From a virus, in IMG/VR virus record IMGVR_UViG_3300025150_000003, positions 96,001-160,000 of that record: a DNA stretch of 64,000 nt, one strand, 5' to 3'. Positions 44,791 to 61,893 of the stretch are shown here, in pieces. The translations under genes were made by a program, and so were the position numbers. How positions within the stretch are numbered: the stretch's first letter is position 1; the number at the start of each line of letters is the position of its first letter. The notes beneath the pieces are model-generated. The model was given only the letters and a program-made list of their open reading frames with translations, did not search any database and was not told the origin of the DNA.

Positions 44791-44912
44791 ATCGAACCAT
44801 CTCCCTGGTGGGAGAGGAGTACAGAGCAAGCGGGGGTCATCACATTCGTCGAGTAGTCCGTCGTCGGAGCCACCGGCTGTTACCGATTGAACCATCCCCC
44901 ACCCGGGGGAGG
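44791..44912 (-). promoter_or_regulatory. Two copies of a 27-nt leader RNA hairpin motif
   Basis: Minus strand cc-tccccc-gggt-ggggga-tggttcaat (44912-44886) and cc-tctccc-acca-gggaga-tggttcgat (44817-44791); one compensatory C-G/T-A pair and different loops. Confidence 0.65.
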
Positions 44913-44951
44913 TGCCGTCTACATCCTACCCAGTCCGACTGCTACGGACGG

Positions 44952-45824
44952 TTAGCCCTGAATGAATGGCGACTGTGGGCTCCCGCCCGTGATGTCACCA
45001 CCCGACTGGTTCATGTTGAAGTTCGGGTTGCTCTCGCCGAACCGGATGGAACCGAGCTGCCCGATGGTCGGGTCGTTACCCGTGGCGAGGAACTCACCGT
45101 ACATCGAGGCGAAGTCGTGGACGTCGGTGACGGTCACGTCGCCCGTCTCCATGATCATGCCGCTGTCCTTCGCGAACGTGGCGGACCACGACGTGAACCA
45201 GCAGGCCTCGTAGATGGTGATGATGGCCGAGTGGCCGCGAGCCGAGCCCGGAGCCTTGCCCACGTTGCCACCGGAGCTGTTGCCCGTCGCCGGGTTGCCC
45301 GAGGGACCGAAGTCCGGCGTGACGTTGGGGTAGGTCACCTGCTTGACACCACCATCGAACGACCCGGTGCCACCCTGGTGCCCTTCGTTGGGCTTGCCCA
45401 TGTCGATGTCCGCCAGGGTCGAGAACACGAGCTGCTGCTCGATGTCGAACGGCCAGCGGTGATGGGCCAGCGAACGCACGGGGCCATCGACTCCCGAGGA
45501 ATAGCCCGTGGCCTGCCAGAGGTTGCACAAGTAGAGCAGGGCTCGCTCGAAAGAACCCGTGGTGGGCTCTGTCACGCTGGGCACCAGCTCGGCCACCTGG
45601 TCACCGAAACCGATACCACGCACCGGCTCAACCGTGCGGCTCTGGCTCGGGTTGAAGCTCGACACGACGCCCATCTGGTGCATCGCCTGGTTCGACCCGT
45701 AATGCGGAGTCAGCAGGCGGACCTTCTGACTCACTGCCGTGCGGGTGTTGGGCGACGTGCCCATGTTGTAGAGGTAGGAACTACCCCCCAAACCATTCGA
45801 TGGGCCGTTGTCCATGTTCGCCAT
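44952..45824 (-). CDS. Tail tube protein
   Basis: 290 aa; GVVSSFNPSQSRTVEPVRGIG...ELVP...PFDIEQ...TIYEACWFTSWS resembles myophage tube proteins; AGGAG RBS. Confidence 0.8.
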   Translation of the reverse strand: MANMDNGPSNGLGGSSYLYNMGTSPNTRTAVSQKVRLLTPHYGSNQAMHQMGVVSSFNPSQSRTVEPVRGIGFGDQVAELVPSVTEPTTGSFERALLYLCNLWQATGYSSGVDGPVRSLAHHRWPFDIEQQLVFSTLADIDMGKPNEGHQGGTGSFDGGVKQVTYPNVTPDFGPSGNPATGNSSGGNVGKAPGSARGHSAIITIYEACWFTSWSATFAKDSGMIMETGDVTVTDVHDFASMYGEFLATGNDPTIGQLGSIRFGESNPNFNMNQSGGDITGGSPQSPFIQG

Positions 45825-45891
45825 GAGGGTTCTCCTGGGCAGTCGTAGAAGCGACGTTCACACTAGAGGAGAAGGTATAACGTAAAAAACG

Positions 45892-45926: not shown

Positions 45927-46727
45927 ATGACTTTTACAAAACTGGTGGCCCTCAAAAGATGCACCCGATGCGGGGTTGAACAACCTGTCGGCGACTTCTT
46001 CTACCAGAGAAGACAGCACCGAAACATCTGTAAAGGATGCCAAGAAAAAGAGAACCTCTCCACTGAGACTTTCAAGTGCACCCGCTGTGAACTCTCGAAA
46101 CTAGCCCGAGAGTTCTATGTCTCTAGTGGGAAACGCCACTCCCAGTGTAAGAGCTGCGCCAAAACCTACCGAAAGCGATACAACAGGCGGACACCCAAAA
46201 CTTCGCCTGAAAAGAAATGCTCTCGGTGTCTTCAGGTTTTGGATTCATCGGCGTTCTACTCCAAGCGGGACGCCTCGGATGGACTCCAAACTCAGTGTAA
46301 AGAGTGTATGCTCAACGCCATGAAACGCTCCCGTGAGCGACCAGCCATCAAAACTGCTTGGGGATCTGTCTCTGTTGCCCGTGCCCAGAAACTGATGATC
46401 ACCCACCATCTCAGTTTCCCTGAAGTGGTAGACCTTCTGAGTGGGACCCACTGCCCCATATGTACACGCCCCTTCGGGGAAGGTTTTGGTGGTCAAGTTG
46501 ACCACAACCACATCACCGGCGAACTGCGAGGGCTTCTTTGCCTTCAATGTAACCTCCTGCTGGGAAATGCTAGAGACCAACCCGACATCCTGTTGGCCGC
46601 CCTCAACTATCTGGGGCACACCTCCGAATCCCCGCAGGTCCCTGAGACCGTCATACCAGCAACACCCCTGAAAAGGGTGTCCTCTCGACAAGAACCTTCC
46701 CGACGAAAAGTCTGGGAGGAGGTCTGA
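45927..46727 (+). CDS. Endonuclease VII-family (His-Me finger) protein with three N-terminal zinc-finger repeats; putative free-standing homing endonuclease
   Basis: CPIC...VDHNHITGELRGLLCLQCNLLLG...LLAALNYL is the Endonuclease_7 signature; three KxCxRC...FY...CKxC repeats precede it. Confidence 0.85.
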   Translation: MTFTKLVALKRCTRCGVEQPVGDFFYQRRQHRNICKGCQEKENLSTETFKCTRCELSKLAREFYVSSGKRHSQCKSCAKTYRKRYNRRTPKTSPEKKCSRCLQVLDSSAFYSKRDASDGLQTQCKECMLNAMKRSRERPAIKTAWGSVSVARAQKLMITHHLSFPEVVDLLSGTHCPICTRPFGEGFGGQVDHNHITGELRGLLCLQCNLLLGNARDQPDILLAALNYLGHTSESPQVPETVIPATPLKRVSSRQEPSRRKVWEEV

Positions 46728-46783
46728 TCAGGGGGTTCCTCTGACACCCTATCGAGTAGAAGGGGAGCCACCAGGAGAATAAC

Positions 46784-47833
46784 ATGGCTGTCAACGCACG
46801 CACGTTCCAAGTTCTGAGCATCATCCGCGAGCGAGCACTTGCGGACCTGACCACGACCCAAGAGGACATTAGCGAGTTCATCGCTAACCACCGAAAGATC
46901 AGCCCCGTGAACTACAACAGGGCGTACATCTCCCCTTCCGCCCTGGCCAGCATCCTGGACCGGATGGCTGGACCTGACGACCTGCTTTCTCAGGGCACGA
47001 AAAATGAATTCTGGATGTCCCCCATGGGATCCCAGATGGCCGACCTCCTGGTGGACATCGACGGGTGCTCCAACCTGTTCATCGACAACTACAAGAAGAT
47101 GGTGTGCTACGCCGCCCTCCAGCAGCGCAGCCGTCTCGGGCAGGGGGCTGCCACCCCCAATGACATCGCGGACGCCACGGGGCTCTCCGGGGACTCCGTG
47201 CGACGGGGACTCTCGGACCTCGTGGTGGACCACCTGGTGGAGGAGGATCGGTCAGGACGCCCCAACCTCTACACCCTCCCCTCAGGAGCAGATGACGGCT
47301 CGACCCCGGAAAAGGCCCAGGTGTCCGAAGAGGACATCGAGGACGCCGCCAGGAAGGGCTACAACCTCGGGAAGAAGGTCGATGATGACCCCACCACCAA
47401 CATCATCGCGGAGACTCTCGCGGAAATCGCTGCTGGCGAAGACGAGTGCTGGGTCCCCACCAAGGATGCCCCTCTCCTGGCTCATGATCCACTGGACCAC
47501 CTGCCGAGGACTCTGAGCCAACTCCTCGAAAGCAACCCTCCGACAAACGCCTACGAGAGCTTCTGGGACCCGAAGCCCTTCGCCACGGTGGAGCAGCCCG
47601 CTGAGGAAACCGAGTTCGAGAAGCACCTTGACATTGCTGAGGAAACCGAGTTCGATACTTTCCCCACCCGTATCGGGGAAGCCTGGTTCGAGGTGCCCTT
47701 CGAGACGCGGGAAAGCCTGTACGCCCAGGCCACCGCCAGTGGCATGACTCTGCCGGATTTCCTCGACACTCTGGTGCACAGCCACGAGACGAAGATCCGT
47801 GAGGTCCTGTTCGGCGACTCGTTCTATTCCTGA
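46784..47833 (+). CDS. Winged helix-turn-helix DNA-binding protein with acidic C-terminus
   Basis: ATPNDIADATGLSGDSVRRGLSDLVVDHLVEEDRSGRPNLY (TrmB/MarR-like wHTH); AGGAG RBS. Confidence 0.7.
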   Translation: MAVNARTFQVLSIIRERALADLTTTQEDISEFIANHRKISPVNYNRAYISPSALASILDRMAGPDDLLSQGTKNEFWMSPMGSQMADLLVDIDGCSNLFIDNYKKMVCYAALQQRSRLGQGAATPNDIADATGLSGDSVRRGLSDLVVDHLVEEDRSGRPNLYTLPSGADDGSTPEKAQVSEEDIEDAARKGYNLGKKVDDDPTTNIIAETLAEIAAGEDECWVPTKDAPLLAHDPLDHLPRTLSQLLESNPPTNAYESFWDPKPFATVEQPAEETEFEKHLDIAEETEFDTFPTRIGEAWFEVPFETRESLYAQATASGMTLPDFLDTLVHSHETKIREVLFGDSFYS

Positions 47834-48021
47834 GAAATGGCATCAGCCTGGGGGACCAGCTCAAGGTCCTCCGGGCTGAGCGCCCAAGCTGTACCCAGAA
47901 CTGACACTTGCTCATCAGGCAACTCTTCCTCAGATGAGTCGGCCGAGGCAAGAGTCACTTCCTCGTAGTCGTTCATGATCCAGGTTCCTTGTCCGTAGAG
48001 GGACTGGTCCATTGTGATCAT
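47824..48021 (-). CDS. Small acidic hypothetical protein
   Basis: Follows the 48035 gene on the same strand; start uncertain (48021 or 48012). Confidence 0.4.
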   Translation of the reverse strand: MITMDQSLYGQGTWIMNDYEEVTLASADSSEEELPDEQVSVLGTAWALSPEDLELVPQADAISQE

Positions 48022-48034
48022 ACCCACCAGACGT

Positions 48035-48784
48035 CTAGCGCCCGTAGGCGCCACCCGTCTGCTGTTGCGGCTTACCATCCCACTTGTGAGCCGAAGAGAA
48101 ACTGTTCAGTCGCACATAGGCTCGACCCTGGTAATCCTGAACCTTCTTCCTCAGCGGGACCCCGATGAACTTGTTGACCATCGGCATCACATATTCGGTG
48201 GGCTCCCCACGACCGCGCACCAACTGCTTCTCGATCTCCCTGATGATGATCATCGAAGGCAAGGTTTTCACAACCTGATAGAAATCGACGTTGGTCTGGT
48301 CGTATCCCCACGACGAGACGAAAATGTCACCCACGATGACCGCCGAGGCCATCTTCACCACCCGTGGTCCCTTGGAACCTCCGAAGTGCTGGAACTCATA
48401 GGTCTCCACGAGACAGTCGCCATAGCGACCGAACCGGATGATCAACTTGGGTGTGTCGTAGGCCCCAACTCCCATCTGGTCGATCAGGGACGCACTCGGC
48501 ATCTCCATCTCTTCCTTGCCGACGACAACACCTGGTGTGTTGGCAGGCACCCGCACCGTCCGACCCTTCACCGTGTCGAGTGGGGTGTCCATCATCAGCA
48601 TGACCTTGTCACCCTTGCGGGGTGTCGTGCTGGCGAGGAACTTCGAGGCGAGATGATCGATCTTCCGAGCGATGCGATCGGGCACGAACTTGGTTGAGTT
48701 CAGCACAGCCAACAGAGGCTTCCGCAGCTCGGGCACCTGGGCAGCCAACTTCAAAAGTTCCTGACGCAGTGGGGTCGTGCTCAT
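48035..48784 (-). CDS. Modular hypothetical protein with N-terminal LRxxLxxLAxxxPELRxxLL helix
   Basis: ATG at 48784 with GGAG upstream; C-terminal VGDIFVSSWGYDQTNVDFYQVVK domain; preceded by the minus-strand motif. Confidence 0.75.
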   Translation of the reverse strand: MSTTPLRQELLKLAAQVPELRKPLLAVLNSTKFVPDRIARKIDHLASKFLASTTPRKGDKVMLMMDTPLDTVKGRTVRVPANTPGVVVGKEEMEMPSASLIDQMGVGAYDTPKLIIRFGRYGDCLVETYEFQHFGGSKGPRVVKMASAVIVGDIFVSSWGYDQTNVDFYQVVKTLPSMIIIREIEKQLVRGRGEPTEYVMPMVNKFIGVPLRKKVQDYQGRAYVRLNSFSSAHKWDGKPQQQTGGAYGR

Positions 48785-48847
48785 GTTGACTGTCTCCATC
48801 CGTAGCCACGGAACTCTACCTTTCCGGGATATTGGATAGAAAACGAG

Positions 48848-48877
48848 GGCTCAACTCTGTGAGACCACCCGTAGTAG
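48848..48877 (+). promoter_or_regulatory. Promoter-like motif GGCTCAACT-N13-CGTAGTAG, copy 1
   Basis: Exact match to the other three copies; ATG follows 5 nt downstream at 48883. Confidence 0.85.
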
Positions 48878-48882
48878 GTTTC

Positions 48883-49113
48883 ATGGAGAAGGATCACTAC
48901 ATCTCGGATCTTGCCCACATCATCACCGGGCTAGGAGCCCGTGAGGAGCGTGCGCTGGAAACCATCCGCACGATGGACCGGCAGCCCACCCTCATCGAGG
49001 ATGCTACACATGTAGCCCGACTGTATGCCCTGCGCAGTGTTCGATTTGAACTCGAAGAGATGAAAGCTGCCTGGGTCAACGACCACCCGAAGTTCAAGGT
49101 TCAGAATCTATGA
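48883..49113 (+). CDS. Hypothetical protein (76 aa), probably leaderless
   Basis: Start moved to ATG 48883 (MEKDHY), just after the promoter motif; ATGA overlap with the next gene. Confidence 0.65.
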   Translation: MEKDHYISDLAHIITGLGAREERALETIRTMDRQPTLIEDATHVARLYALRSVRFELEEMKAAWVNDHPKFKVQNL

Positions 49114-50201
49114 ATCACCTACCGGACTGCCCTTGTGGGGCAAACGACTGGCAGGGAGCCGGAGGGCACTACAGCCCCAACGGCCAATACTACGGTCGCA
49201 CCTGTGGCCGATGTGGGAAGGACCTCCACAACATCGGCCGTGATGGTTGGTGGCTCTTGTTCATCCACCCCACGACCCAGCGAGAGGTGCTAGAAGACTA
49301 CGCCAACACCTCCCTGGCCATCCAGGCCCGAGCCTATGCGGCCAAATGGAAGGCTGTGAACAAGGCGCATCAGAAGGTCCTGTTCGATGCCCTCTGCCGG
49401 GAATGGGGGCTGGCCCCCGAGAAGGGTGTGGAGTGGCATCCGCTGGAGACCAAGTACGACACGGGTCTCGGCTACGAGACCTGGGACTTCGACTACCTGG
49501 ACAACGAGGGCAACCGCCTCGATCTCGATGCTCATGCGTTCCGTGAGGCGTGCCACACCCTATGGGATGCCAACCCGGAGCACCCAAGCATGGTCCGGGC
49601 TCCTGACCCCATCAACGTGCCCGATGGCATCACCGCCTATGTGAGCCGTAACAAGATCTGGGATCTCGTCCCCCTACAGGCTGGCCTCCAGCCCATCCCC
49701 CTGGACCCCCTACGCCAAGGGTGGATCACCTACTGGGGGAGGGTCTGGAGTCTCCTGAAGGAAGCCACAGGCATCACTGTGGCCCCCGAGGAAGTACCCA
49801 ACGAGTACAGCAAGGATCCCACCAACGCGGAGCCTTGGTGGAAATTCACCATCGGTCGTGGTGAGTTTCTCGTTGGTCCCCGGCATCGTGTTGTCAACAT
49901 CGAAGTCTCGTCCGAGACTCCGTTCCCCACGGCCACCCTCCGTGCCCTGGCGGGCGCAGACAAGGTCACCTTCACGGCTCAGCGCCCCTGGGAGCAAGAG
50001 CTGGAGGAGCGACTCACGAAGCTCCCGCCCGCTCGTGGTGATGGGTTCAAGGCCTGGGAAGAGACGATCACTCGTCTTGCTGCCGAGGCTGCCGAGGCCA
50101 ACCAGGATGCTGCCGATGAGTCCACCAAGATGGTGATCCACGCCTACAGCCAGGCTAAGGTCGTGGAGTACCTCACCCTCGCCATTCAAAGCGTGAGCTG
50201 A
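49110..50201 (+). CDS. Hypothetical protein with N-terminal zinc ribbon (363 aa)
   Basis: CPCG...TCGRCG; coupled to both neighbours. Confidence 0.75.
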   Translation: MNHLPDCPCGANDWQGAGGHYSPNGQYYGRTCGRCGKDLHNIGRDGWWLLFIHPTTQREVLEDYANTSLAIQARAYAAKWKAVNKAHQKVLFDALCREWGLAPEKGVEWHPLETKYDTGLGYETWDFDYLDNEGNRLDLDAHAFREACHTLWDANPEHPSMVRAPDPINVPDGITAYVSRNKIWDLVPLQAGLQPIPLDPLRQGWITYWGRVWSLLKEATGITVAPEEVPNEYSKDPTNAEPWWKFTIGRGEFLVGPRHRVVNIEVSSETPFPTATLRALAGADKVTFTAQRPWEQELEERLTKLPPARGDGFKAWEETITRLAAEAAEANQDAADESTKMVIHAYSQAKVVEYLTLAIQSVS

Positions 50202-51235
50202 TGCCCCCGAGGAAGACCAAGGAGCAGGCTGAGACCAAGCCCACCATCGCCTGGATGACCGGGGCATACGCAGGCTCCGGCGGGTTCCTCCAGCAATGCA
50301 CGGACAAGGTTGTGACCAGGATCAACCATCACGGTGACTACCCCGATCAAGATGGCACGTTCATCGTCACAGACCGGCTCAACGTGTTCCAAGCCTATCC
50401 CATGCTCAACGTCATCTCTGGCGAGAACATGGAGATGTGGCTCACCAAGCAGGAGGTCGAGCAGTACCGGGGCACCCGAGCAGACGACTGGACAGAACCT
50501 CACCCTCGGACTTTTGACCTGGCCACCATTGGCCTTGTCACCCCAACCAAGACAAGGCCAGCACTTCAAGGCTGGGCTGGGTCCTCCATGTATCGGATCG
50601 TTCAAGACAAAGGGGGCCACTGGTGGTACGGGGATGTCACGATACCCCACAAGTTGGCCTACTGGCACCGCTTCAAAGGCAAGAGGGGGACGGATCTTAG
50701 ACTTCCCGAACTACGTTTCCTGTACCCGCACCTGACCTACATGGGGCCGGATTCGGATCATGTCACCGTCTCCCCGTGGGGGGAGAAGAGTCGATCAGAT
50801 CGACTCCTCATCGCGACGTATGAGGTACAGCGCCTTGTGGAGTCACTCAGGATGACGGGGGTCTATTACCCACAAGGGAACGCCCGTTGGAATGTGGAAA
50901 TCGCCGAGAAGGAGTGCAGAACCCTCCGCGACAGTTTGATGGTCAACCTCATTGACAAAGAGGACTCAGCCTCAAAGCTCCTTGAGCACGCTCAGAAGGA
51001 AGCTGAGACTGCCCAAAACGCAGCCCATGAAGCCAAAATGAGGGCAACTCGTCTCGAAGGTGAGTTGAAAGAGCTGCGAGCGATCCCACCTACCGAACGG
51101 GATGCTATCCTCTCCCGCCTTTCCAAGGAAAGGGACGATGCCCTCGAACGTGCCTTGTGGGCAGAAAAAGCCCTAGAGACGGCTCGGGAATGCAACACGG
51201 GCTGGGATTGGAGTCGGGTGCTCGACGAGGACTAG
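50201..51235 (+). CDS. Hypothetical protein with C-terminal coiled coil (344 aa)
   Basis: TGATG overlap with the upstream gene; heptad-rich C-terminus. Confidence 0.75.
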   Translation: MPPRKTKEQAETKPTIAWMTGAYAGSGGFLQQCTDKVVTRINHHGDYPDQDGTFIVTDRLNVFQAYPMLNVISGENMEMWLTKQEVEQYRGTRADDWTEPHPRTFDLATIGLVTPTKTRPALQGWAGSSMYRIVQDKGGHWWYGDVTIPHKLAYWHRFKGKRGTDLRLPELRFLYPHLTYMGPDSDHVTVSPWGEKSRSDRLLIATYEVQRLVESLRMTGVYYPQGNARWNVEIAEKECRTLRDSLMVNLIDKEDSASKLLEHAQKEAETAQNAAHEAKMRATRLEGELKELRAIPPTERDAILSRLSKERDDALERALWAEKALETARECNTGWDWSRVLDED

Positions 51236-51807
51236 AACTTCAAGTCTATCCCAAGCCTGTTACCATTGCGAGCATGAGGCACCGCACAGCACTTCCCGAC
51301 AATCATCGGGGTGGTGATGCCAACCAGGGCCAGCCGAACGTCTGGGTCGTTGCACAGGAACCCATTCTCGCTGACCACGAGGTCCTCGTTGAGGTTGTAG
51401 GTGATGAACCCACCCGTACCATCCCTCAACCCACCAGGGCCAATGGCCACCGTCTCGAAGATACGGAACAAGAATCGACCACCACCAGCCGTGATGGTGA
51501 CGGTAGAGGCCCCTGCACGAGAGCCCTGCTCTGTTCGGAGCTGAACCCCAGTGTAGTTGTTCACCGGACCCGAGAAGGAGCCAGGGTCATAGTCTTCAGA
51601 AGGGAAGGCCAAGAACCCCGTGGCGCTGTTTCCATCGGAGGCTTCCACAACGTACTCATCCACCATGTTCGGTGGTGGGATGTACTTGACCCAGATCCCT
51701 CCCTGCCAGCCTTGGGCACGGAGATTGGGGCCGGCGGTCGCGGGGAACTTATCCCCGTTGATGACCAGAACCACGTCGTCGGTCAGGTTGGTTGTTTGCT
51801 CAGCCAC
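51232..51807 (-). CDS. Hypothetical protein, possibly virion/head-associated (191 aa)
   Basis: GAGGTG RBS; Gly-rich with beta-strand-like sequence; preceded by the same motif as the structural genes. Confidence 0.65.
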   Translation of the reverse strand: MAEQTTNLTDDVVLVINGDKFPATAGPNLRAQGWQGGIWVKYIPPPNMVDEYVVEASDGNSATGFLAFPSEDYDPGSFSGPVNNYTGVQLRTEQGSRAGASTVTITAGGGRFLFRIFETVAIGPGGLRDGTGGFITYNLNEDLVVSENGFLCNDPDVRLALVGITTPMIVGKCCAVPHARNGNRLGIDLKF

Positions 51808-51856
51808 ATCTCACCTCTACCCGAGTAGGGCCAAAGGCAGAAAACCGAACTGAGGG

Positions 51857-51886
51857 GGCTCAACTTGGCGTAGCCATCCGTAGTAG
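51857..51886 (+). promoter_or_regulatory. Promoter-like motif GGCTCAACT-N13-CGTAGTAG, copy 2
   Basis: Exact match; GGAG at 51905-51908 and ATG at 51912. Confidence 0.85.
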
Positions 51887-51911
51887 GTGTGTACAAGGCA
51901 CCACGGAGAAC

Positions 51912-52166
51912 ATGATGTTGAAGGACATGATCGAGTTCAAACGAGAGCAGAACGTCCGCATCGACACTGGGGACGTGGTGTTCGATGGCAAGATCCGAGC
52001 CGTCATCTCGATGAACCGGAAGAACACCAGTGACGAGGATCGCCTCTGTCACAACTACATCGTCGTGAACTACAACGACGGTGAGGTGGACACCGTTGCA
52101 CGTTTCTACCAGCGCCGGTCTGGACACATCTTCAACTCACGAGGCTGGACGCTGGAAGCCGAGTAG
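51912..52166 (+). CDS. Small SH3/KOW-like hypothetical protein
   Basis: Start moved to 51912 (GGAG RBS); FKREQNVRID...GKIRAV...YIVV pattern. Confidence 0.65.
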   Translation: MMLKDMIEFKREQNVRIDTGDVVFDGKIRAVISMNRKNTSDEDRLCHNYIVVNYNDGEVDTVARFYQRRSGHIFNSRGWTLEAE

Positions 52167-52169
52167 TAG

Positions 52170-52199
52170 GGCTCAACTCTGACCAGCCAAGCGTAGTAG
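52170..52199 (+). promoter_or_regulatory. Promoter-like motif GGCTCAACT-N13-CGTAGTAG, copy 3
   Basis: Exact match; ATG follows 4 nt downstream at 52204. Confidence 0.85.
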
Positions 52200-52203
52200 G
52201 TAC

Positions 52204-52458
52204 ATGAAGATCCGACTCACATTCAAGACCCCGGACATCCTGCTCGACACCGCCGAGCAGTACCTCGACAACCCCGAATTCCAGCGCTGGCTCCTTCATG
52301 AGGAGTGGGCCAACCCGGGAGACAAGGATCGCCAGATGCGAGACGCCGCCGAAGATGCTCTGACGGAGAAACTTCAGGGCATCGTCCGTTCAGGTGAGTA
52401 CCTCACCATCGAAGTCGATCTGGACACCAAGACCGCCACCGTCGTGAAGGGAGAGTAA
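52204..52458 (+). CDS. Hypothetical protein (84 aa), probably leaderless
   Basis: MKIRLTFKTPD...GEYLTIEVDLDTKTATV; immediately after the promoter motif. Confidence 0.75.
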   Translation: MKIRLTFKTPDILLDTAEQYLDNPEFQRWLLHEEWANPGDKDRQMRDAAEDALTEKLQGIVRSGEYLTIEVDLDTKTATVVKGE

Positions 52459-52460
52459 CC

Positions 52461-53165
52461 GTGACTGTTCTGACCGCCATCATCGCCATCATCGCCATCC
52501 TGGGGATGGTGATGACCGTACAACTGTCCCGCAAGTACCGGGTCAATGCCGCTGCGTTCACGGCCCAGATCCAGAAGCTCGTGATGGCCAACAGCATCGA
52601 CAGGGCCATCAGGCTCTGCAACGCCGTACAGGAGGCCCCCCTGCCTTCTGCGGTGAAAAGCCTCCTCGTCCGGTCCAACCGCCCCCACGAGCTTCCGCTC
52701 TACTACGAGCAGGAATACGAGGGGCTGACCCAGAAGGCATCCGAGATCAACAACTACAAGGGATGGCATGGCATGGCCGCCTTGGTGGGGAACCTACTTC
52801 TCGTGGGCATCCTCTACTTCGCGACACCTGAGGCTGACAAGGGGGGCACCACGACCTGGCTGGTGGTCTACCTCTCGGCTTCCATCCTCCTCTCAGGCCT
52901 ACTGACCAGCCTCCACCACCACCTGAAGGGGTCGCGGGTGTACCTCCACAAGGTGTACATCATGCTGCTGAACCGCCAGAGCTACACCCCCAAGAGCCAC
53001 GAAGTCCGCCACCTCACTCGACAGGAGATCGAGGCCTGGCAGGCCTCCATGGATGCCTTCAACGCGGACTACAGCACCCGCAAAGCGTCTGGAGCGCCCG
53101 TGGAGAAGGTGGAAGACGAGTACAAGGCCAACGCTGATGACCGTGGCGTCCTCCCGCCCCTCTGA
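52461..53165 (+). CDS. Degenerate MotA/TolQ/ExbB-like three-TM membrane protein
   Basis: TM1, then KYRVNAAAFTAQIQKLVMANSIDRAIRLCNAVQEAPLPSAVKSLLVRSNR, then two more hydrophobic segments. The loop resembles myxobacterial TolQ/ExbB homologues as I recall them. Confidence 0.65.
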   Translation: MTVLTAIIAIIAILGMVMTVQLSRKYRVNAAAFTAQIQKLVMANSIDRAIRLCNAVQEAPLPSAVKSLLVRSNRPHELPLYYEQEYEGLTQKASEINNYKGWHGMAALVGNLLLVGILYFATPEADKGGTTTWLVVYLSASILLSGLLTSLHHHLKGSRVYLHKVYIMLLNRQSYTPKSHEVRHLTRQEIEAWQASMDAFNADYSTRKASGAPVEKVEDEYKANADDRGVLPPL

Positions 53166-53176
53166 ACCAGAAAGAA

Positions 53177-53554
53177 ATGCAGACAAAACTTGAAACAGTA
53201 GAACAGATGCGTACCAGAGCACGGGCAAGCAACCAATCCTGGATGGATTTCGCCGCTTCAATCCATGATGTGGGCTATGCTCTATATCCTCTGGGCAAAG
53301 ACACACTGACCTGGCTGGAACAAGCACGTCCCATCAGGGACGAAACCTGCCCACTCGAACTACGAAAGGCCGTACTACATACCGGGCGGCAAACCTCTCT
53401 CTTCGGAGAAGACATCTACATCGTGGATGGACGGGCCGACCACGTCATCTGGATGAGACACCAAACCTGCAACACCAGTGCCCTACTTCACCGTGGTGAT
53501 GGGCTATATTGTGCCACCTGCCACGCAAGTGTTTCCCAGCAAGAGACCATATAA
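53177..53554 (+). CDS. Hypothetical protein with C-terminal Cys/His cluster (125 aa)
   Basis: HQTC...YCATCH; co-oriented within the cluster. Confidence 0.6.
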   Translation: MQTKLETVEQMRTRARASNQSWMDFAASIHDVGYALYPLGKDTLTWLEQARPIRDETCPLELRKAVLHTGRQTSLFGEDIYIVDGRADHVIWMRHQTCNTSALLHRGDGLYCATCHASVSQQETI

Positions 53555-53585
53555 TCATCTGATTCTCAATCACAGGAGACCACGG

Positions 53586-53900
53586 ATGCCTGTCACACTC
53601 CATTCACCCGAGCAGAAGCCTCCGGTTTACGAGATTGAGGTCGTGGGGGCAGCGGAACTGCTTTCCAGAGCCCAGATCGAAGACCTGAGTCGGAGACTCG
53701 GAGAGTTCCTGGGGATTCCCGATGCCACCCTGCTCTCCCCACAAGCCCGAGCCTATCTTGATGCCCTTATGGATGTCGTCCACCAAGAAGCCGAAGAAGT
53801 CGCCTGGCTCGGCAAACGACGATTCGACTCTGATGCCGTCGCCTACCACGCCAGGAGACTCATCAAACACCTGGACGCTGAAACCAAGAAAAGAGAGTAG
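53586..53900 (+). CDS. Hypothetical protein (104 aa)
   Basis: Start moved to ATG 53586, which has AGGAG upstream. Confidence 0.6.
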   Translation: MPVTLHSPEQKPPVYEIEVVGAAELLSRAQIEDLSRRLGEFLGIPDATLLSPQARAYLDALMDVVHQEAEEVAWLGKRRFDSDAVAYHARRLIKHLDAETKKRE

Positions 53901-53912
53901 TCAATCGGTGTA

Positions 53913-54067
53913 CCACATCATACGTGGATTCATCAGAATCCGTTCAGTGCTACCTGCCTGTTCAGTGTTTTGTGACCCCCGCCATTTCATTGGTCAGAGG
54001 CAGGTTTTGACCCTAGTGCGGAGAGAGCCCACCATCTGGCCCGACTACTGAACAACTTTGGTAGCGC
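53913..54067. ncRNA. Candidate structured RNA with two alternative folds
   Basis: Intergenic; three 8-bp helices (53947-54/54060-67, 53959-66/54047-54, 53952-59/53998-54005) plus smaller hairpins. Confidence 0.45.
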
Positions 54068-54071
54068 CAAA

Positions 54072-54101
54072 GGCTCAACTTCCTGAGCCCACCCGTAGTA
54101 G
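54072..54101 (+). promoter_or_regulatory. Promoter-like motif GGCTCAACT-N13-CGTAGTAG, copy 4
   Basis: Exact match; upstream of the gene starting at 54179. Confidence 0.85.
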
Positions 54102-54178
54102 AGTCAGGTGAGTCCTGGTGAACTGGTAGCCAGGGGCAAGGTTCCGCCAACAACGTGATGAACAAGCAGGAGAGTAAG

Positions 54179-54442
54179 ATGGACAAACTAGCCCAAATCA
54201 TTGCAGAGCACCCCACCAAGCGATGGAGGGCTCATACAGGGTTCGTCACCCCGGTGATGTTGCGTGCGGTCTTTGAAGAAGCCAAGACGCGGGACATCAT
54301 CACGGTGGCAGAGGTGCAGGAGATGCCCGACTTCATTGGCACCCTGTTCCTCGCACGCACCACCTGCAAATGGCTGGAGCGGATGGGATTGCTCCGTGAG
54401 AAGAGCGCTTGTAGTGGCAGGTTCAGCCTCGTGAAAGACTAG
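54179..54442 (+). CDS. Small hypothetical protein, possibly winged helix
   Basis: AGGAG RBS before ATG 54179; WLERMGLLREK...GRFSL resembles a wHTH wing. Confidence 0.6.
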   Translation: MDKLAQIIAEHPTKRWRAHTGFVTPVMLRAVFEEAKTRDIITVAEVQEMPDFIGTLFLARTTCKWLERMGLLREKSACSGRFSLVKD

Positions 54443-54458
54443 CCATCAGCACCAAAGC

Positions 54459-54499
54459 AAAGAGGCCCCCGAACGTCTGCTCGGGGGCCTCTTTCTTTT
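54459..54499. terminator. Bidirectional intrinsic terminator
   Basis: aaagaggcccccga (54459-72) / tcgggggcctcttt (54481-94) perfect inverted repeat with T-rich tail, between convergent genes. Confidence 0.85.
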
Positions 54500-54713
54500 C
54501 TAGGACTTCGGGGTCACCCGGCTGATCAAGGTCAGGCCCTCCTCTGGCAACCAGTGCAGGTGGTCCACCTGCACGTAACGGGGGTGCTGCCACAAGTAGT
54601 TCTCACACAGGTACTCAAACCCACCATCCGTCCTGAAACGGGATTCAAGCACTCGATAGTGGAGGGTGCTCTGCCTGCTGAACAGTGTCATTACGCTGAA
54701 ACTTCGGTTTCAT
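54500..54713 (-). pseudogene. Small SH3-like protein gene split by a frameshift
   Basis: ATG 54713 gives MKPKFQRNDTVQQAEH.. and stops at 54645; the +1 frame continues LHYRVLESRFRTDGGFEYLCE...WLPEEGLTL to 54500. Confidence 0.45.
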
Positions 54714-54846
54714 CTTTCAATCCTGGTTACGGTGTCTTCACCATGAGAGTTTCCGGCTCTCGTCGGAGAGTCGTGCGAGGCCGACTCTCCTGGCTCAATA
54801 GTCCCGCAACAAGGTGTCGTTGACACCACTTTGACAAAAAACGTCA

Positions 54847-56259
54847 CTAGGCAGAAACCCGTACCAGCGTGTCCCCCAACCACAACCCACCCGGCTTGAC
54901 TGCCAACACGCCCAGCTCGACCAGACAGCCCTGCAAGTAGGACACGTCCGTGTAGGGCTCGTCCTCCCGCACTTCAAGGTAGATGAGGTCCGGTGCAGAC
55001 TGGATCATCTCCCGCTTGATGCGGTCCCGTTCGATGAGCTTGTCCCACTCAGCACGGTAAGACTCGTCCACCATCCAGGGGTTGGGGAAGGTGTAGTGGA
55101 ACATCCCCTGAAACTCGACGACCAACCCAACGTCAGGGAAGTAGCCGTCAAACCGGAAGCGATGCCCCGTTGGTGGGTTGGTGAACCGCCAGCTCTTCCA
55201 TTCCTCCTCAAAATGCCGCCCGTCTAAAGCCTCCGAAACGGCATCCAAGCAACGCCTCTGAGAGACGTTCCCATGTGCCCAGATCAACCCTAGACGACGA
55301 CATTCCTTCTTGATGGTGATGTTGCTGTACCCCAACCCAGACATCGCCGCCGCAATGCTCACCTTCCCATTCTTCAGCTTGAACTTTTCCAGTTCCTCCA
55401 CCGTGAGGACTACCCGTCGGTCATCGGCCGCCTGCTCGATGTACTTGGGCGTTGCTCTCAGCCCCCACAACTCCAAGTAGGTCTTGAGCGTAGGCCACGC
55501 AACACCCAAACCTGGCATTGCCCTCCGGTGATCTACCGTCCCATCAGGCTCCAAGAAAGGCGTGAAATCCTCTTGGGTCAAACCAAGGGTCTTGGCTTCT
55601 CGGATTTTCTCTCCGAAATCGGGCGGACGAATCAGCCCCTGCAAAGCACTCTTGTCCCTCACAGGACAGTCCAAGGCGACCACCAACGCCTCAGGGTGAC
55701 GCTCCCGATACCCTGAGTGCTCATGCTGTAGGTGACTGGTCAGGTTCTCCGCACGGTAGCCACACTCCAGGCAACGGATGAAGTCCTTCGACTCCTTCTT
55801 GCCCTTCCACCGTGCAACCTCCAGGAGGTTCGCCGTGGAAGCCTTGCATTCCGGGCAAGGAACGACCGAGGAGAGCTTGTGCACCTCGTGCTCCCTCCCA
55901 CAAGAGGGGCACACGATGCTCTTGGTGCCATCGTAAGCATCGGAGGCCACCCGACCCTGTTGGATGGCCTCCCGTCGCTTCTCCGTGACCTTAGAGGGGC
56001 GAATGAGGGCATCCTGGTGCTTGACCCGATAGGCGTCCGCTGTGATGCCGTGGGATGCCTTCAGGTGACGAGCAAGAGTTGCCGCTCGATGCCCGCACTC
56101 AAGGCAACAGACGTAATCCTCACCCTCAACTTTCCCATTCCAACGCTGGTCCTCTTGCCACTCCAAATACTCCGGGTGGGAAGCTGCCTGGTGGCGGAAG
56201 TGAGATGCCAACCCCCGAAGGTTGGCTACCTTGATAGAACAGATGGGGCACAAAACCAC
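54847..56259 (-). CDS. Multi-zinc-finger protein with C-terminal PD-(D/E)XK (Vsr/DUF559-like) nuclease; putative free-standing homing endonuclease
   Basis: One C2H2 finger, two Ros/MucR-like DYVxCLECG..LxxHL fingers, a C4 ribbon, two helical repeats, then RFDGYFPDVGLVVEFQGMFHY...DRIKRE. Confidence 0.8.
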   Translation of the reverse strand: MVLCPICSIKVANLRGLASHFRHQAASHPEYLEWQEDQRWNGKVEGEDYVCCLECGHRAATLARHLKASHGITADAYRVKHQDALIRPSKVTEKRREAIQQGRVASDAYDGTKSIVCPSCGREHEVHKLSSVVPCPECKASTANLLEVARWKGKKESKDFIRCLECGYRAENLTSHLQHEHSGYRERHPEALVVALDCPVRDKSALQGLIRPPDFGEKIREAKTLGLTQEDFTPFLEPDGTVDHRRAMPGLGVAWPTLKTYLELWGLRATPKYIEQAADDRRVVLTVEELEKFKLKNGKVSIAAAMSGLGYSNITIKKECRRLGLIWAHGNVSQRRCLDAVSEALDGRHFEEEWKSWRFTNPPTGHRFRFDGYFPDVGLVVEFQGMFHYTFPNPWMVDESYRAEWDKLIERDRIKREMIQSAPDLIYLEVREDEPYTDVSYLQGCLVELGVLAVKPGGLWLGDTLVRVSA

Positions 56260-56361: not shown

Positions 56362-59300
56362 TTACAACTGGGACCGAAGGTGGAAGGTTAGCACAATATA
56401 CAAGAGGGGAAAAACCGGCTGGTAGTACGCTTCCACGTTCGCTGTCGTCGGGTCCTCCGGGTCCACCTGGGCCTTGAGGCCGGTGTAGATCGCGATGATC
56501 TGCTGCTTGACCAGCGTCTGCATCATCTTCGCGAGCCGACCCTCAATCTGGCTGAGGATGCCCGGCAGGAACTTCATCCCGATGAACTGGTCCAACGTCG
56601 CCCGGCTCTGCTGCTGAACGTGGTCCGCGATGAGCCGAACAGTCGGGGTCTTCGTCAGCACGTTGGTCATGTCGGTCGTGAGACCGTGACGAACCTGGAT
56701 GAAGGGCGGCTTGTCGGTCAGCACGGTGACACCCGCCACCGCAATCTGGTTCTGCTGCACAGCATCCAGCGAACGAGCAAGCTGCGTCGGCCCGACCAAC
56801 CGACGCCTCGTCCAGGGGGAGGCCACGTCGTAGTTCGGCGAGACCACGGAACCGGTGAGCATGGCCGCCAGGTACGGACCGTCGATGAGATGCTCCTTGG
56901 TGGTCCCGTTCGAGTCCTCGATGCCGATCAGAGCCATGTCCGGGTAGACCACCCGCATCCGGTCGCTGTGCAGGGTCTGAGCCAGCGTCTTCACCCCGGC
57001 TTCTGTCGTCCCCGAGGCCACCCCGATGATGCTCGTCCGCTCCTGACGGTAGCGGATGGACGACTGGATGTCGTTGCTCCGAGCAAGAATCTGGAAGAGC
57101 GGCGTCGAGTCACCCTTGAGCGGGGTGATGAGATCGGGGGTGATGTGACCCGGAAGCACACCCTCCAGCTCGGTGATGGCCGAGAGGTAGGTGTTCACGT
57201 CCGCGAAGTTGCTGTCCGTGGCACGTGGCACCTGCTTGATACCCACCAGCACGGCCCCGTTGATGATGGCCAGGAAGGCCGCCAACGAGACGGGGTTGTC
57301 CGGGTGGATGGCACCGTAGGCACCGATGATGCTCTGCATCCGGGTGAAGAACGCCGTCGTGAAGTTCTGCTTCTGGTAGACGTAGCTCGCGTAGTAGAGA
57401 TCGCCGATGGCCGGCTCCTCACCACCACGCGGGTAGGTCGTCACCAGAGCCGTGTCCCCAGCACCGACACCCGAGGTGTTGGCCACCAGCAGCTCGATAC
57501 CCGGGATGGACCGGATCGGGATGTTGGCGTTCGCCGTGACCGTCTGAGCCACACGGAACTGGAGGGTCGCCGCCGCCGGGTAGGAGATCCACGGACCCAC
57601 CGAGTTGTCGTGCCAGCCACGCGGCAGGATGGTGAAGGTCAGGCCCGTCACCTCATCCCGGTAGGTCTGACCGATGACCCCATCCTGACCCGTGCCCGCG
57701 TTGAGCACCGAGGTGTTGATGGAACCCGAACCATCCGCCCCGTTCGAGGAGGTGACGAAGTACCCGTTCATCGCGGGGTCACCAGCCGAACCAGCGTTGT
57801 TCAACTCGTCGATGCCCGAGCCGACGTACAGCCAGGAACGGGTCGTAGCATCCAGCAGGGTGATGGTCGAGCCCGTACCGTAGTCCGCCCCCGCCTTGTC
57901 CGCCGAGATGATGTGCAGGTAGGTCCGGTTGGACGAATCCTGCACGACCTTGGCCAGAGCCTGGTCCGCGAAGTCCGTGTTGGTCTGGGTGGAGCTGAAG
58001 TCCCAGTAGAAGTTCGAAAGGCTACCACCCGACCACTCGCGGTTGCCGTTGAGAGCCGAGGCCAGAACCTCTGCACTGACCAGCGTGCGGACCGCCACGG
58101 TGCCCTGGGCGAACCCGAGGACCGAGTTGGCCGAGCCAGCACCGATCTCCACCCGACCCGTGTCGTAGTAGCTCTGACTCGTGAGCCGGATGCCGGCACC
58201 CTCAGGCCGGCAGATGAGAGCGGTCTGCACCGCTCCAATAGCACCCCAGGTGCCATTGGCTGCCAGCTCGGTCTGGATCTGCCGGATGACGGTGCCCGCC
58301 GCGCTCTCGATGCCGAGCAGTGTGGTTGTACCCGCCCCGGAGGCCGCGAACGTCACCTTGATGGGCTGGCTGTCGAGGGTGAACTCGAACACGTTGTTGG
58401 CCGGCTGCGACCCAGAACCATCGTAGAACACGACCTGAGGCTCACCCGCCGTGTTAGTGCCACCACCAAACCCGACGCGACCAAGAATCGTACCCCGCTG
58501 GACCGTGGCCCCCGGGGCCGCCGAGGCGAAGTCCCCGTTGGAGAGCCCGGCCTTGGTGTTGCCGGAGCCCGCCCCAACCAGGAGCTGGCACTGCCCGACC
58601 ACATCCAGAGCCGACATCGAGTTGCCGCCGGGGTGGATACGGTTGCGGAGCAGGAGCCGGTCGAAGCTGTTGACGGAACCGACCGTGACCCGGTAGGGGG
58701 TCGCGATACCGGCGTCGATGACCGGACCCGTGTCGTTGTTGCTGCTGATCAGCATCTTGGCCTGGACACCCGCTGCGGCATCCACATCGAACCCAACGAG
58801 CTGAGCCAGGTCGTCCACCGAGGCACCTTGCTCGACGAACTCCAGGTAGCACGCACGGTCGGTCGGGCAGCACTGGAGCGTGAGCTGGAGTCGGCCGTCG
58901 CCATCCACCGAGAAGATGAAATCGAGACCCTCCAGACCCGCACCAATGACACCCTGGGCCAGAAGGCCAGGAGCCGCCGGGGGAGTGTCGAAGGTGTGCC
59001 CACCGACCGGGGTGGCACCACGGTAGATGACGTTCAGGGCCGTGGCCAGGGCCGCCACCGAGGCGTGGAGGACGTTCACCGTGGCGCTGCCTGAGAAGGC
59101 CGCGTTCACGTCACCGAGGACACGCACGGTCAGGGTGTCAAACCCTGCACCACCGGAGAGGTCGATGGGGCCGTTGAACCGGGTGGCACCCTTGATGACC
59201 GGCATCGTGTCCGGGTTGTACATCCGATAGTCGTCACCGACCGTGAAGACGTTGGCACCGTCGATGGGGCCTTCCAGCGTGACGAGACCCGAGGTCCCGT

Positions 59301-61719
59301 TGTAACTGAGCACCGTGCCGACCGAACCAGGGGTGATGGCGAAAGCATTCGCCCCCACCACGACCCGCCAACCCTTGTAGAAGTCGGTGATGGGCACTCG
59401 GACGTTGGGGCCAGCCGTGAAGGCCGTGGTCGTGGGACCGACGGCACCCACCGTGCCAACGTGACCATCGGCCGCCTCGATGATGGCCTGAGCGAAGTCC
59501 GCCACCGTGGCGCTGACCGCTGGCACCGGGAGGGTCGCCGTGATCTCCACACCATCGACGGTGAGAAGAATCTGCTCTGCACCACCCGTGAACTCCGCCG
59601 CGAGGAACGTGGTCCCGTTCGGGTAGGCGATGGCGTCACCGACGAAGTGGGGCATGATGCCCTTACCCGTCGAGCCCGTACCACCGGAGATGAGGTCGAG
59701 ACTCACTCCAGCGACCGGAAGTACCGTCTGAGCGTTGACCGTCATCGCGATGAGGTCGGACTCAGCGGGGATGAAGGCGTAGGGGGCCGACCCCTTGACC
59801 GTGAACAGTGCCGGAGTGTCCGGGGTGTCCGCGAAGGTGACCGTGACCACCTCCTCGACAGGACCGGTGAAGTCGATGCCCGACCCACCCTCGAAGTGGA
59901 GATCAGGGCTCAGCTCCGACCCACTGGGGAAGACCACCTCGACACCCGTGAGACCCGCCGACTTCGTCGTGTTGTCGAAGGTCGGGGTGTAGATCGGGTT
60001 GCCGCTGGAGTCCACGATAGTGAAGGAACCCACGCCGCTGACGCCCGGAAGGACGACGGCCAGCATGTACTCCATGTCCGTGATCATGTTGTGGTAGAAG
60101 GTCGCGTAGACCGTCGCCCCCACAGGGACCGCCGACTGGAGGGTCACCACCGACCCCTCGACCTGGATGGTCGTGACCTTGCCACGGGCAAAAGCATCAT
60201 CCAAACCGAAGCCCCAGTACACGTCCACCACGTCGGGACGGTTGACCGGGACACCGATCTTGTTGTTCGAGATGCTCTGGAACAGGCTCTGGCCGAGGCT
60301 CGTGTCGCGCCCGTTGCCCAGCGTCGGGTTCATGGGGAGCTGGAAGCTCGTCCCGCTCACCACCCCCTGAGCCGATACCACCGGGGTGCAGACCGACATG
60401 AAGGTCTTGTTGTCGATGAGGGTCGGCGTGATCTGCGTCTCGTCGAACCGCTCCGTACCCGTGGTCGTGGTGCCCGAGGCGACCGCAGCCGCCGTGCCCC
60501 ACATCACCCGGTCGTTCTGAAGGATGAAGTCCGTACCCTGGGTGTACTGGCTGCCACTCGGCACATCACCAACACGGGTCAGGCTCGTCACGTTGACGTG
60601 AGCCAGGTAGTCGAACGTGTCCTGCCAGGTGTTGAACCAGTAGGTCACTGTCACCTGAGCACCGGCCAGAGGAGCCTGGGCCAGCGTGACTGCTCGGGAA
60701 GCACCATCCACGCTCACCGGGATGACCTGCACCCCGTTGACCCTCACGACAACGTGGCTCGGGTCGGTCGTGGTGACACCACCGTTGCTCCCATCCACGA
60801 TGGGGCCGTTGAACGTGTAGAAGGTCTTGCGCCGGACACTGGTCTGACCGGCCGCCAGACCAAGAAGGGCATTCGCCGAGCCTTCCAGGACCGTAAGGTC
60901 ATGCTGCGAGTTGAGCGCCAGAGCGTTCTCCCCGTAGTTGTTGACGAAAGTGCTGCCCGTCAGCGTCCCCAGACCAGCGGCAGAGATCACGTTGGCGATC
61001 TGCTGCATCGTGTAGGTGGTCTTCGGCGTCAGCGTGAGGGCCACCGTGGTCCCATCCACGACCAGGTTCAGAACGTTGTTCGCCGGGACGATGATGGCCC
61101 CCGTCGGCCCGAGCACGTCAGCGTGCAGGTCGATGACAGCCGTTCCCGGCGTCGGGGCGTTCACGTCCTTGAGACCCACAGCCGCTCGGATGATGGCGTT
61201 CTCCGCCGTCACCTGGTCCGACAGGTTGTCCGTGACCAGCGTGTCCTCACGGTTGAAGTAGTAGCTGATGCGAACCAGGTCACCGAGCCTTGGGGCCTGG
61301 CTCAGAGTGATGATGCCGGCAGCACCATCAACGGCCAGCACGACGGTCGGGAGACCGTTGATGGTCACCGTCACATCCCTGCGGCTGTTGGTGGTCGTCC
61401 CTCGACCGGAGCCATCCACGATGGGCAGATTCCGCACCTGCACACGGGTCAGGACACCATCGAAAGCACCCCGGGTCACGACGCCCGTGGCCGAGATGTT
61501 GGTGACCGCACGGCCGGTTAGGTCCTCGCCAACGATGCGCTGGTCCACCGTGGAGGAAGAGCCTCGCACGACTTCCAGGTCCACCTGGCTGAGGTACTCG
61601 TTGCCCTCACCGATGAAGACCGGAATCTTCAGCGACTCGATCGCACCCTGGAGCGGGTTGTCGTAGTCGGTCTGGGTGACAACGCTGGGGGGGGCGTAGA
61701 ACTGTCCGGGGAAAGCCAT
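56362..61719 (-). CDS. Contractile tail sheath protein, greatly enlarged (1785 aa)
   Basis: N-terminal YAPPSVVTQT...IPVFIGEG and C-terminal YLAAMLTG...AGVTVL...VRHGLTT...VRLIADHV...YYQPVFPLLYIVLTF are sheath motifs; GAGGTG RBS. Confidence 0.9.
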   Translation of the reverse strand: MAFPGQFYAPPSVVTQTDYDNPLQGAIESLKIPVFIGEGNEYLSQVDLEVVRGSSSTVDQRIVGEDLTGRAVTNISATGVVTRGAFDGVLTRVQVRNLPIVDGSGRGTTTNSRRDVTVTINGLPTVVLAVDGAAGIITLSQAPRLGDLVRISYYFNREDTLVTDNLSDQVTAENAIIRAAVGLKDVNAPTPGTAVIDLHADVLGPTGAIIVPANNVLNLVVDGTTVALTLTPKTTYTMQQIANVISAAGLGTLTGSTFVNNYGENALALNSQHDLTVLEGSANALLGLAAGQTSVRRKTFYTFNGPIVDGSNGGVTTTDPSHVVVRVNGVQVIPVSVDGASRAVTLAQAPLAGAQVTVTYWFNTWQDTFDYLAHVNVTSLTRVGDVPSGSQYTQGTDFILQNDRVMWGTAAAVASGTTTTGTERFDETQITPTLIDNKTFMSVCTPVVSAQGVVSGTSFQLPMNPTLGNGRDTSLGQSLFQSISNNKIGVPVNRPDVVDVYWGFGLDDAFARGKVTTIQVEGSVVTLQSAVPVGATVYATFYHNMITDMEYMLAVVLPGVSGVGSFTIVDSSGNPIYTPTFDNTTKSAGLTGVEVVFPSGSELSPDLHFEGGSGIDFTGPVEEVVTVTFADTPDTPALFTVKGSAPYAFIPAESDLIAMTVNAQTVLPVAGVSLDLISGGTGSTGKGIMPHFVGDAIAYPNGTTFLAAEFTGGAEQILLTVDGVEITATLPVPAVSATVADFAQAIIEAADGHVGTVGAVGPTTTAFTAGPNVRVPITDFYKGWRVVVGANAFAITPGSVGTVLSYNGTSGLVTLEGPIDGANVFTVGDDYRMYNPDTMPVIKGATRFNGPIDLSGGAGFDTLTVRVLGDVNAAFSGSATVNVLHASVAALATALNVIYRGATPVGGHTFDTPPAAPGLLAQGVIGAGLEGLDFIFSVDGDGRLQLTLQCCPTDRACYLEFVEQGASVDDLAQLVGFDVDAAAGVQAKMLISSNNDTGPVIDAGIATPYRVTVGSVNSFDRLLLRNRIHPGGNSMSALDVVGQCQLLVGAGSGNTKAGLSNGDFASAAPGATVQRGTILGRVGFGGGTNTAGEPQVVFYDGSGSQPANNVFEFTLDSQPIKVTFAASGAGTTTLLGIESAAGTVIRQIQTELAANGTWGAIGAVQTALICRPEGAGIRLTSQSYYDTGRVEIGAGSANSVLGFAQGTVAVRTLVSAEVLASALNGNREWSGGSLSNFYWDFSSTQTNTDFADQALAKVVQDSSNRTYLHIISADKAGADYGTGSTITLLDATTRSWLYVGSGIDELNNAGSAGDPAMNGYFVTSSNGADGSGSINTSVLNAGTGQDGVIGQTYRDEVTGLTFTILPRGWHDNSVGPWISYPAAATLQFRVAQTVTANANIPIRSIPGIELLVANTSGVGAGDTALVTTYPRGGEEPAIGDLYYASYVYQKQNFTTAFFTRMQSIIGAYGAIHPDNPVSLAAFLAIINGAVLVGIKQVPRATDSNFADVNTYLSAITELEGVLPGHITPDLITPLKGDSTPLFQILARSNDIQSSIRYRQERTSIIGVASGTTEAGVKTLAQTLHSDRMRVVYPDMALIGIEDSNGTTKEHLIDGPYLAAMLTGSVVSPNYDVASPWTRRRLVGPTQLARSLDAVQQNQIAVAGVTVLTDKPPFIQVRHGLTTDMTNVLTKTPTVRLIADHVQQQSRATLDQFIGMKFLPGILSQIEGRLAKMMQTLVKQQIIAIYTGLKAQVDPEDPTTANVEAYYQPVFPLLYIVLTFHLRSQL

Positions 61720-61783
61720 CTGGGCACCTCACTGCGGGTCGTTTTGACGTTCTCTGCGCTAGGGCAGAGGGAAACCGCTCTAC

Positions 61784-61893
61784 ATGGATCCATCCCCTGC
61801 CGGAGCAGGAAGAGGCAGGTTCCCTTGTGGGGAAGCACCAGTGCAGGTCATCGGTCTGTCTATCGTGCCCATCCTAGCCCCGAAGCCAGGAGG
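61784..61893 (-). promoter_or_regulatory. Two further copies of the leader RNA hairpin motif, in the sheath leader
   Basis: Minus strand cc-tcctggc-ttcggg-gctagga-tgggcacgat (61893-61862) and cc-tcttcctgc-tccg-gcagggga-tggatccat (61815-61784); G-U pairs form only in the mRNA sense. Confidence 0.55.

Follow-up and report, generated by a model that had tools for sequence, protein, structure and literature searches.

Comparison of a viral contig with its relatives suggests that two tail genes, those of the sheath and of the tail assembly chaperone, may be controlled at the level of translation through a shared RNA module in their leaders, which recurs in front of the gene of a small protein, DUF5659. 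For the reading that this constitutes a phage-encoded, protein-triggered translation regulon with DUF5659 as the most likely binder, the odds are about even (a probability of roughly 0.5). The stretch that was analysed, here called the window, comprises 64,000 nucleotides (positions 96,001 to 160,000 of IMG/VR record IMGVR_UViG_3300025150_000003) of a viral contig of 169,413 bases, estimated to be 32% complete. Its relatives, large phages that have not been cultured, reach 618 kb, and the closest cultured match, Tunturiibacter phage Tunturi_5, is distant (tube identity 37%).

Leader A lies between the genes of the tail tube and the chaperone, and leader B in front of that of the sheath (Table 1). 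The ESM Atlas features of the tube (0.94) point to clusters in which Phi812_tail_tube (28% of members) and DUF2001 occur. For the chaperone (model pLDDT 91.3), the top PDB match is the HK97 tail assembly chaperone (Z 7.7, rmsd 3.7, 100 aligned), and Foldseek returned a phage tail assembly chaperone (E 1.9e-5). Downstream of leader A, genes run on the same strand for more than 50 kb, and a 1175-aa gene further down is taken as the putative tape measure gene, by position and helical character alone. Sheath and tube are set apart by ~10.5 kb of mixed-strand genes (window 45927-56259), among them one for endonuclease VII (45927-46727) and one for a zinc-finger protein that weakly matches HNH (54847-56259); in G033 the two are nearly adjacent. 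A short N-terminal motif, LR-E-IKLA-PELR-L, is common to unrelated-looking proteins at window 48035-48799, L181:13145-13705 and L182:17622-19847.

Table 1. Features of the two tail leaders and their flanking genes (window positions)
Feature	Position	Strand	Remarks
Tail assembly chaperone gene (389 aa)	43533..44702	-	first gene under leader A
SD-containing strand of terminal OFF hairpin	44705..44716	-	
P1 3' strand	44725..44744	-	final 9 nt (44725-44733) are the anti-SD
Box B2 (YUUGNGCUG type)	44747..44757	-	C and U invariant, UUG near-invariant
Purine tract R2	44760..44793	-	38% A, periodicity weaker
Hairpin copy 2	44791..44817	-	central, conserved: CC, stem-loop, bulged U, GG, tail
Box B1 (YUUGNGCU type)	44822..44830	-	columns invariant or near-invariant
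Purine tract R1	44836..44865	-	41% A in relatives
P1 switching helix, 5' strand (anti-anti-SD)	44867..44884	-	co-varies with 44725-44744
Hairpin copy 1	44886..44912	-	near predicted 5' end; in some relatives only, mostly the close clade
Promoter-like -10 box GGTAGGAT	44923..44930	-	just past tube stop; conserved in relatives; putative function
Tail tube gene (290 aa)	44952..45824	-	5' of leader A; between sheath and chaperone
Tail sheath gene (1785 aa)	56362..61719	-	first gene under leader B; phrog_2839 tail sheath, E 1.3e-21
Sheath SD region GAGGUGCCC	61722..61730	-	GAGGUG invariant
Hairpin copy 4	61784..61815	-	leader B
Purine tract and box B of sheath leader	61833..61864	-	
Hairpin copy 3	61862..61893	-	leader B
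Long-range anti-SD GGGCACC	61895..61901	-	adjoins hairpin 3
Late-promoter-like box (RWTAG-N5-CTAT)	61937..61950	-	starts leader B; conserved in relatives; putative function
FmdB-like zinc-ribbon gene	61946..62383	-	PF09723 (Zn_ribbon_8) and phrog_1076; directly upstream of leader B

The initial annotation had described a bulged hairpin in four copies, two in each leader, and all four are present on the minus (coding) strand. A strict descriptor matches exactly these four in the 169,413-base contig, all intergenic and none on the plus strand, compared to local shuffles, which average 0.225 matches with at most 2. The change from C-G to U-A in the first pair between copies 1 and 2, and the G-U pairs of copy 3, are likewise as had been described. 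The tail reported behind the hairpin (N2-3-C-N-AU) can be read in the four copies, but its C is not conserved, and the relatives are nearer to GG-U-Y-A-R-A-Y. The expectation of further copies was borne out by hairpins at the same places in about 30 related large phages, in which stems and loops vary while their positions are kept, as in the window. The tandem pair did not hold up as a unit, most relatives having one hairpin in the chaperone leader, between two purine-tract/box modules. The idea of a cis-acting element on tail genes agrees with position, strand and covariation, with the qualification that the hairpin is one piece of a larger translation-switch leader, of which the switching helices and the third site had been missed. 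Judged from sequence comparison, the element is probably a protein-binding operator.

Over 55 hairpin calls (a few of them nested duplicates), the bulged base is U in 39, C in 14 and A in 2, while G-U accounts for 45 of 296 stem pairs and the loops vary freely. For the central hairpin (the position of copy 2), 87.6% of cells are paired, with two-sided changes at 5 of the 7 pairs. Additional copies occur inside the loop of the SD hairpin (L092:7015-7045) and next to the central hairpin in leader A of L062 and L066, so that the module appears to move as a unit. Rfam returned 0 matches in the window at gathering score, and an E-value search of both leaders gave best values of 3.1 and 9.5, i.e. 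no family match.

A loose descriptor finds many matches scattered by chance, so that the hairpin alone carries information only when its flanks are considered with it. With a model of the core (model R1, which is sequence-only and misses diverged leaders such as those of G006 and G016), strong matches over 49 records were confined to leaders A and B. Weak extra matches were found in G018 and G021/G022 directly before DUF5659, and three others, which look like chance, in or opposite coding sequence. An unbiased pattern scan of IMG/VR gave 5 matches, 3 of them at the three predicted sites and 2 in coding sequence, the latter being chance matches (L301:2844-2868 and L303:4209-4233, one in an RNA-phage replicase-like frame). 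In a pattern scan of 21 genomes the well-paired matches were mostly at the three sites (e.g. one each in G024 and G022), next to a few chance matches in coding regions.

Leader A has one design, 200-290 nt long, that is kept in about 30 relatives, with a short spacer alone in its place in AT-rich distant relatives. From 5' to 3' it consists of a -10-like box, the 5' strand of a helix here called P1, purine tract R1, box B1, the bulged hairpin, purine tract R2, box B2, the 3' strand of P1 and the SD hairpin. Its -10-like box, which is TATAAT-like in AT-rich relatives, also stands before several other genes of this genome: a GGTARRRT box, apparently a -10 element, is found 20-50 nt 5' of several genes (window 44930, 48820 and 1323) and at about 20 further sites in G000. 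Tract R1 has a 4-nt periodicity in the relatives (lag 4, z=9.6; lag 8, z=4.8). An upstream mini-ORF, starting from the AUG 3' of the hairpin, was ruled out as neither the AUG nor the frame is conserved, and pairing of box B with the post-hairpin tail or the purine tracts was dismissed for want of consistent covariation, by eye or with RNAalifold.

The anti-SD of leader A can pair either with 44867-44884 (P1) or with 44705-44716 (the SD hairpin), and these pairings are mutually exclusive. In a test on 21 leaders (59% mean identity, all pairwise <72%), cognate strands of P1 formed a duplex of -30.1 kcal/mol versus -22.7 for non-cognate strands, and the SD hairpin gave -14.0 versus -11.0 kcal/mol. 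The permutation p is about 1e-5 in both cases, which is to be taken as a strong indication and not as an exact probability, because the shuffles ignore kinship. On a MAFFT alignment of leader A 84.5% of cells are paired (37-54% in slid controls), with two-sided changes at 14 of 23 pairs; the outer P1 helix is 91% paired, and one pair shows a two-sided change in 11 of 30 sequences. Leader A thus contains two exclusive helices that share one anti-SD and each co-vary, as would be expected of a translational switch. In the window the predicted OFF fold (-92.7 kcal/mol) is favoured by 5.6 over the ON fold (-87.1 kcal/mol), while the balance predicted for relatives ranges from OFF to mostly ON and is often near even. 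From this comparative evidence, the switch layout of leader A appears well supported.

In leader B, the hairpin, tract and box modules are present in many relatives. Its long-range anti-SD and the SD flank, ~170 nt apart, are paired in 94% of cells with two two-sided changes among 12 close relatives; the pairing energy is no better than that of shuffles in most leaders, and outside the close clade the pairing was looked for and not demonstrable. A second sheath anti-SD, considered for the L136-L140 clade, was rejected as it overlaps the CTA of the late promoter and fails in L137 and L140. The late-promoter-like box RWTAG-N5-CTAT occurs three times in G000 (157950, which is window 61950, 48107 and 27366), two of these being directly after FmdB-like genes, and also before several DUF5659 genes. 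In some relatives an endonuclease-like gene has been inserted behind a leader, namely between the leader and its usual sheath target (L013:7500-8250) and between the leader and DUF5659 (L181:17359-18048, G026). These inserted genes sit 3' of the leader and would therefore take over the regulated start site.

Over 49 phage records, the module is found in both tail leaders and in a single additional place, 5' of the SD of a small gene that Pfam identifies as DUF5659 (PF18903), a single-copy gene present in 26 of 36 records. Of 60 distinct leaders, 23 have a hairpin that ends 5-36 nt ahead of the DUF5659 start, versus 78 of 1800 random windows (4%); about 3 of the 23 look like chance. In the closest relatives, G032 and G034, the exact CCUC...GAUGG form of the window precedes DUF5659, and in G026 the hairpin has been kept in place despite the HNH gene inserted between it and DUF5659. 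Among genomes that have the tail module, 11 of 14 carry the hairpin at DUF5659, versus 2 of 10 among those without the module (Fisher p 0.011, uncorrected for kinship); kinship and GC content are confounders of this co-occurrence. DUF5659 has a wider distribution than the hairpin, many phages having the gene without it, and no DUF5659 matches were found in cultured phage records. In G032 the gene is located 27 kb upstream of the sheath; the corresponding place falls outside the present contig, hence the lack of DUF5659 there. The DUF5659 leaders of L291, L296, L297 and L300 have no hairpin and carry repeated AGAUG-like purine words, which, going by their sequence, may be the single-stranded part of the site. 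In G033, DUF5659 is followed by a second small gene (L193:791-1102) that resembles it by eye and has no score with PF18903 or PHROGs.

In the relatives, the putative operator thus ends 5-30 nt ahead of the AUG and adjoins the SD of the regulator candidate's own gene, as is seen for autoregulators. Since the site is on its own mRNA, autoregulation by DUF5659 is suggested, and DUF5659, rather than the FmdB-like neighbour, is therefore the best candidate binder. The protein has ~80 aa, with conserved K/R at about 10 positions and conserved aromatic residues at 9, and a predicted small alpha/beta fold (pLDDT 88.5). Prediction of a homodimer scored 0.54 (best control 0.00), a mark that 20 of 30 solved homodimers attain, as does 1 of 23 single chains, and the dimer runs agreed in at least 96% of contacts with pLDDT of at least 90. 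Among solved structures nothing matched with E <= 0.001 (best Z 3.8), and no clear RNA-binding relative was seen; weak matches were to split alpha/beta folds, C-terminal domains of the EF-G family and similar ones, from which novelty of the fold does not follow. The candidacy of DUF5659 derives from the site in front of its gene, as fold and dimer do not in themselves show RNA binding, although a dimer, as modelled, would fit the two modules of leader A. Overall, a protein trigger of the switch seems likely, and for DUF5659 as that trigger the odds are about even.

The structures, the two exclusive pairings and the three sites follow from comparison; protein binding, the identity of the binder, the directions of the switch and its role in timing are inferred. 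In the proposed mechanism, the bulged hairpin, the adjoining purine tract and the YUUGNGCU box would together be bound by a small RNA-binding protein of the phage. DUF5659 bound beside the SD of its own mRNA would damp its own synthesis. In leader A the chaperone SD would be concealed by default in the terminal hairpin, and with the two internal modules occupied by protein, P1 would be favoured, by which the anti-SD is taken away and translation of the operon of the chaperone (and probably the tape measure) is opened. In the sheath leader, binding at hairpin 3, which adjoins the anti-SD, would shift access to the SD as well. The net effect would be that the tail genes are translated only after build-up of the regulator. 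That DUF5659 is an unrecognised dimeric family of phage RNA-binding proteins, which represses its own mRNA, switches on the sheath and chaperone operons and so times tail assembly, is put forward tentatively, at somewhat less than even odds.

Several known systems share parts of this arrangement. The small Com protein of phage Mu binds a short hairpin near a start-hiding structure and thereby turns on mom translation (PMC6483171), which resembles the action proposed here. Com, however, is a zinc-finger protein with a single mRNA target, on which it recognises a loop motif, whereas here the loop is variable and the conserved parts are the 3' bulge, the purine tracts and the box; a long-range anti-anti-SD helix (~140 nt across), and tail operons plus the candidate regulator's gene as targets, are further differences. 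In T4, gp32 and gp43 autoregulate their translation and RegA, a small homodimer, has about 30 targets (PMC3014915). The proposed control is similarly phage-encoded and located at ribosome-binding sites, but RegA sites are unstructured, AU-rich and repressive, unlike these hairpin leaders, and no sequence or fold match was seen between DUF5659 and RegA. The T4-type early/late RBS hairpin, in which a late promoter lies within the hairpin that hides the SD, was discarded, since both promoter-like boxes precede every pairing strand. Like CsrA/RsmA, a dimeric protein could span two RNA sites close to the SD. A CsrA/RsmA operator was nevertheless rejected, given that PF02599 is absent from 5 phage records (3 of them at least 90% complete) and that GGA is found in just 1 of the 55 loops. 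Translational riboswitch platforms have exclusive anti-anti-SD and SD-sequestering helices around a conserved core, and the helices of leader A enclose a conserved core in the same way; unlike in riboswitches, this core looks like a protein site and not like a pocket for a metabolite. Because the defining sequence features fail and there is no Rfam match, the leaders were filed under none of Com, CsrA and nut. In the literature searched there was no mention of DUF5659 and no phage leader of this kind; the viral RNA catalogue of PMC10690425 may hold the motif among its unnamed candidates. The RNA regulon seems to be real and of a known general kind, apparently undescribed, with an unusual riboswitch-like layout.

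The switch layout by itself does not name a ligand, and the same translation switch could have another trigger (an RNA-binding protein of the host, a tail protein not yet assembled or a small molecule), with DUF5659 as merely the third target. The wider range of DUF5659 would agree with this, the 4-nt period of the tract would suit a ring-shaped or polymeric binder, and one further factor, in control of all three genes, could read the element they share. On the other hand, the smallest form of the site is on a small, conserved, non-structural-looking gene, as with the sites of autoregulators, the above findings on five phage records and on the loops speak against CsrA, and purine tracts that vary in length and fold poorly are unlike a metabolite pocket. 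Another trigger is considered unlikely. The FmdB-like zinc ribbon, named earlier as a possible binder, is encoded directly 5' of the sheath leader in all relatives and could be thought to act as Com does on mom mRNA, resembling Com in that a zinc-finger gene adjoins the target. It is disfavoured by its equal presence in relatives that lack the leaders (L017, L019, L022, L023, L026), by the lack of a hairpin before its own gene, and by the Com loop motif CC(N)2-3GAG, which is not conserved among the 55 hairpin calls, and is thus a highly improbable binder.

Antitermination and processing are minor rivals. The part of boxB that is read by lambda N is its loop, which is the variable part in these hairpins. 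A loading site for processive RNA polymerase over long structural operons, made up of hairpin and box in the manner of lambda N/nut, would nonetheless account for the three sites being shortly 3' of promoter-like boxes where operons begin, with one site preceding the regulator candidate's own gene, and for leader A being ahead of the long same-strand gene run. Its box-then-hairpin order recalls boxA-boxB. Lambda nutL, too, stands ahead of N and is the site through which N translation is repressed (PMC5725501). There is, however, no boxA/boxB consensus here, the box being YUUGNGCU, the conserved pairings converge on the SD and end there rather than on a terminator, and no clear intergenic intrinsic terminators were found downstream on the coding strand, where counts (of intrinsic terminators only) are near the shuffled level. 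All in all, this explanation is quite unlikely. It is also conceivable that no ligand is involved, in which case the hairpins would be 5'-end stabilisers or RNase processing signals, with cleavage or folding kinetics setting SD access. Copy 1 and the DUF5659 copy are indeed at most ~15 nt from the promoter-like box, where 5' hairpins stabilise mRNA, and a cut within leader A would take off the 5' strand of P1. Stability does not require a sequence-specific bulge and tail, duplicated boxes or periodic tracts, though, and the stems are just 4-9 bp, which is short for RNase III; such a role is very unlikely.

As a rule, control of tail-gene output in phages is explained by late promoters and by the frameshift within the gene of the tail chaperone. 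The regulon with DUF5659 as its candidate binder points to a level of control, at translation, over the chaperone and sheath genes of uncultured phages that reach 618 kb. If true, this would be the first function for DUF5659, and possibly a new RNA-binding fold. With a protein of 80 residues, a hairpin of 25 nt and an ON/OFF leader, the system lends itself directly to tests in E. coli and could find use as an orthogonal translation switch.
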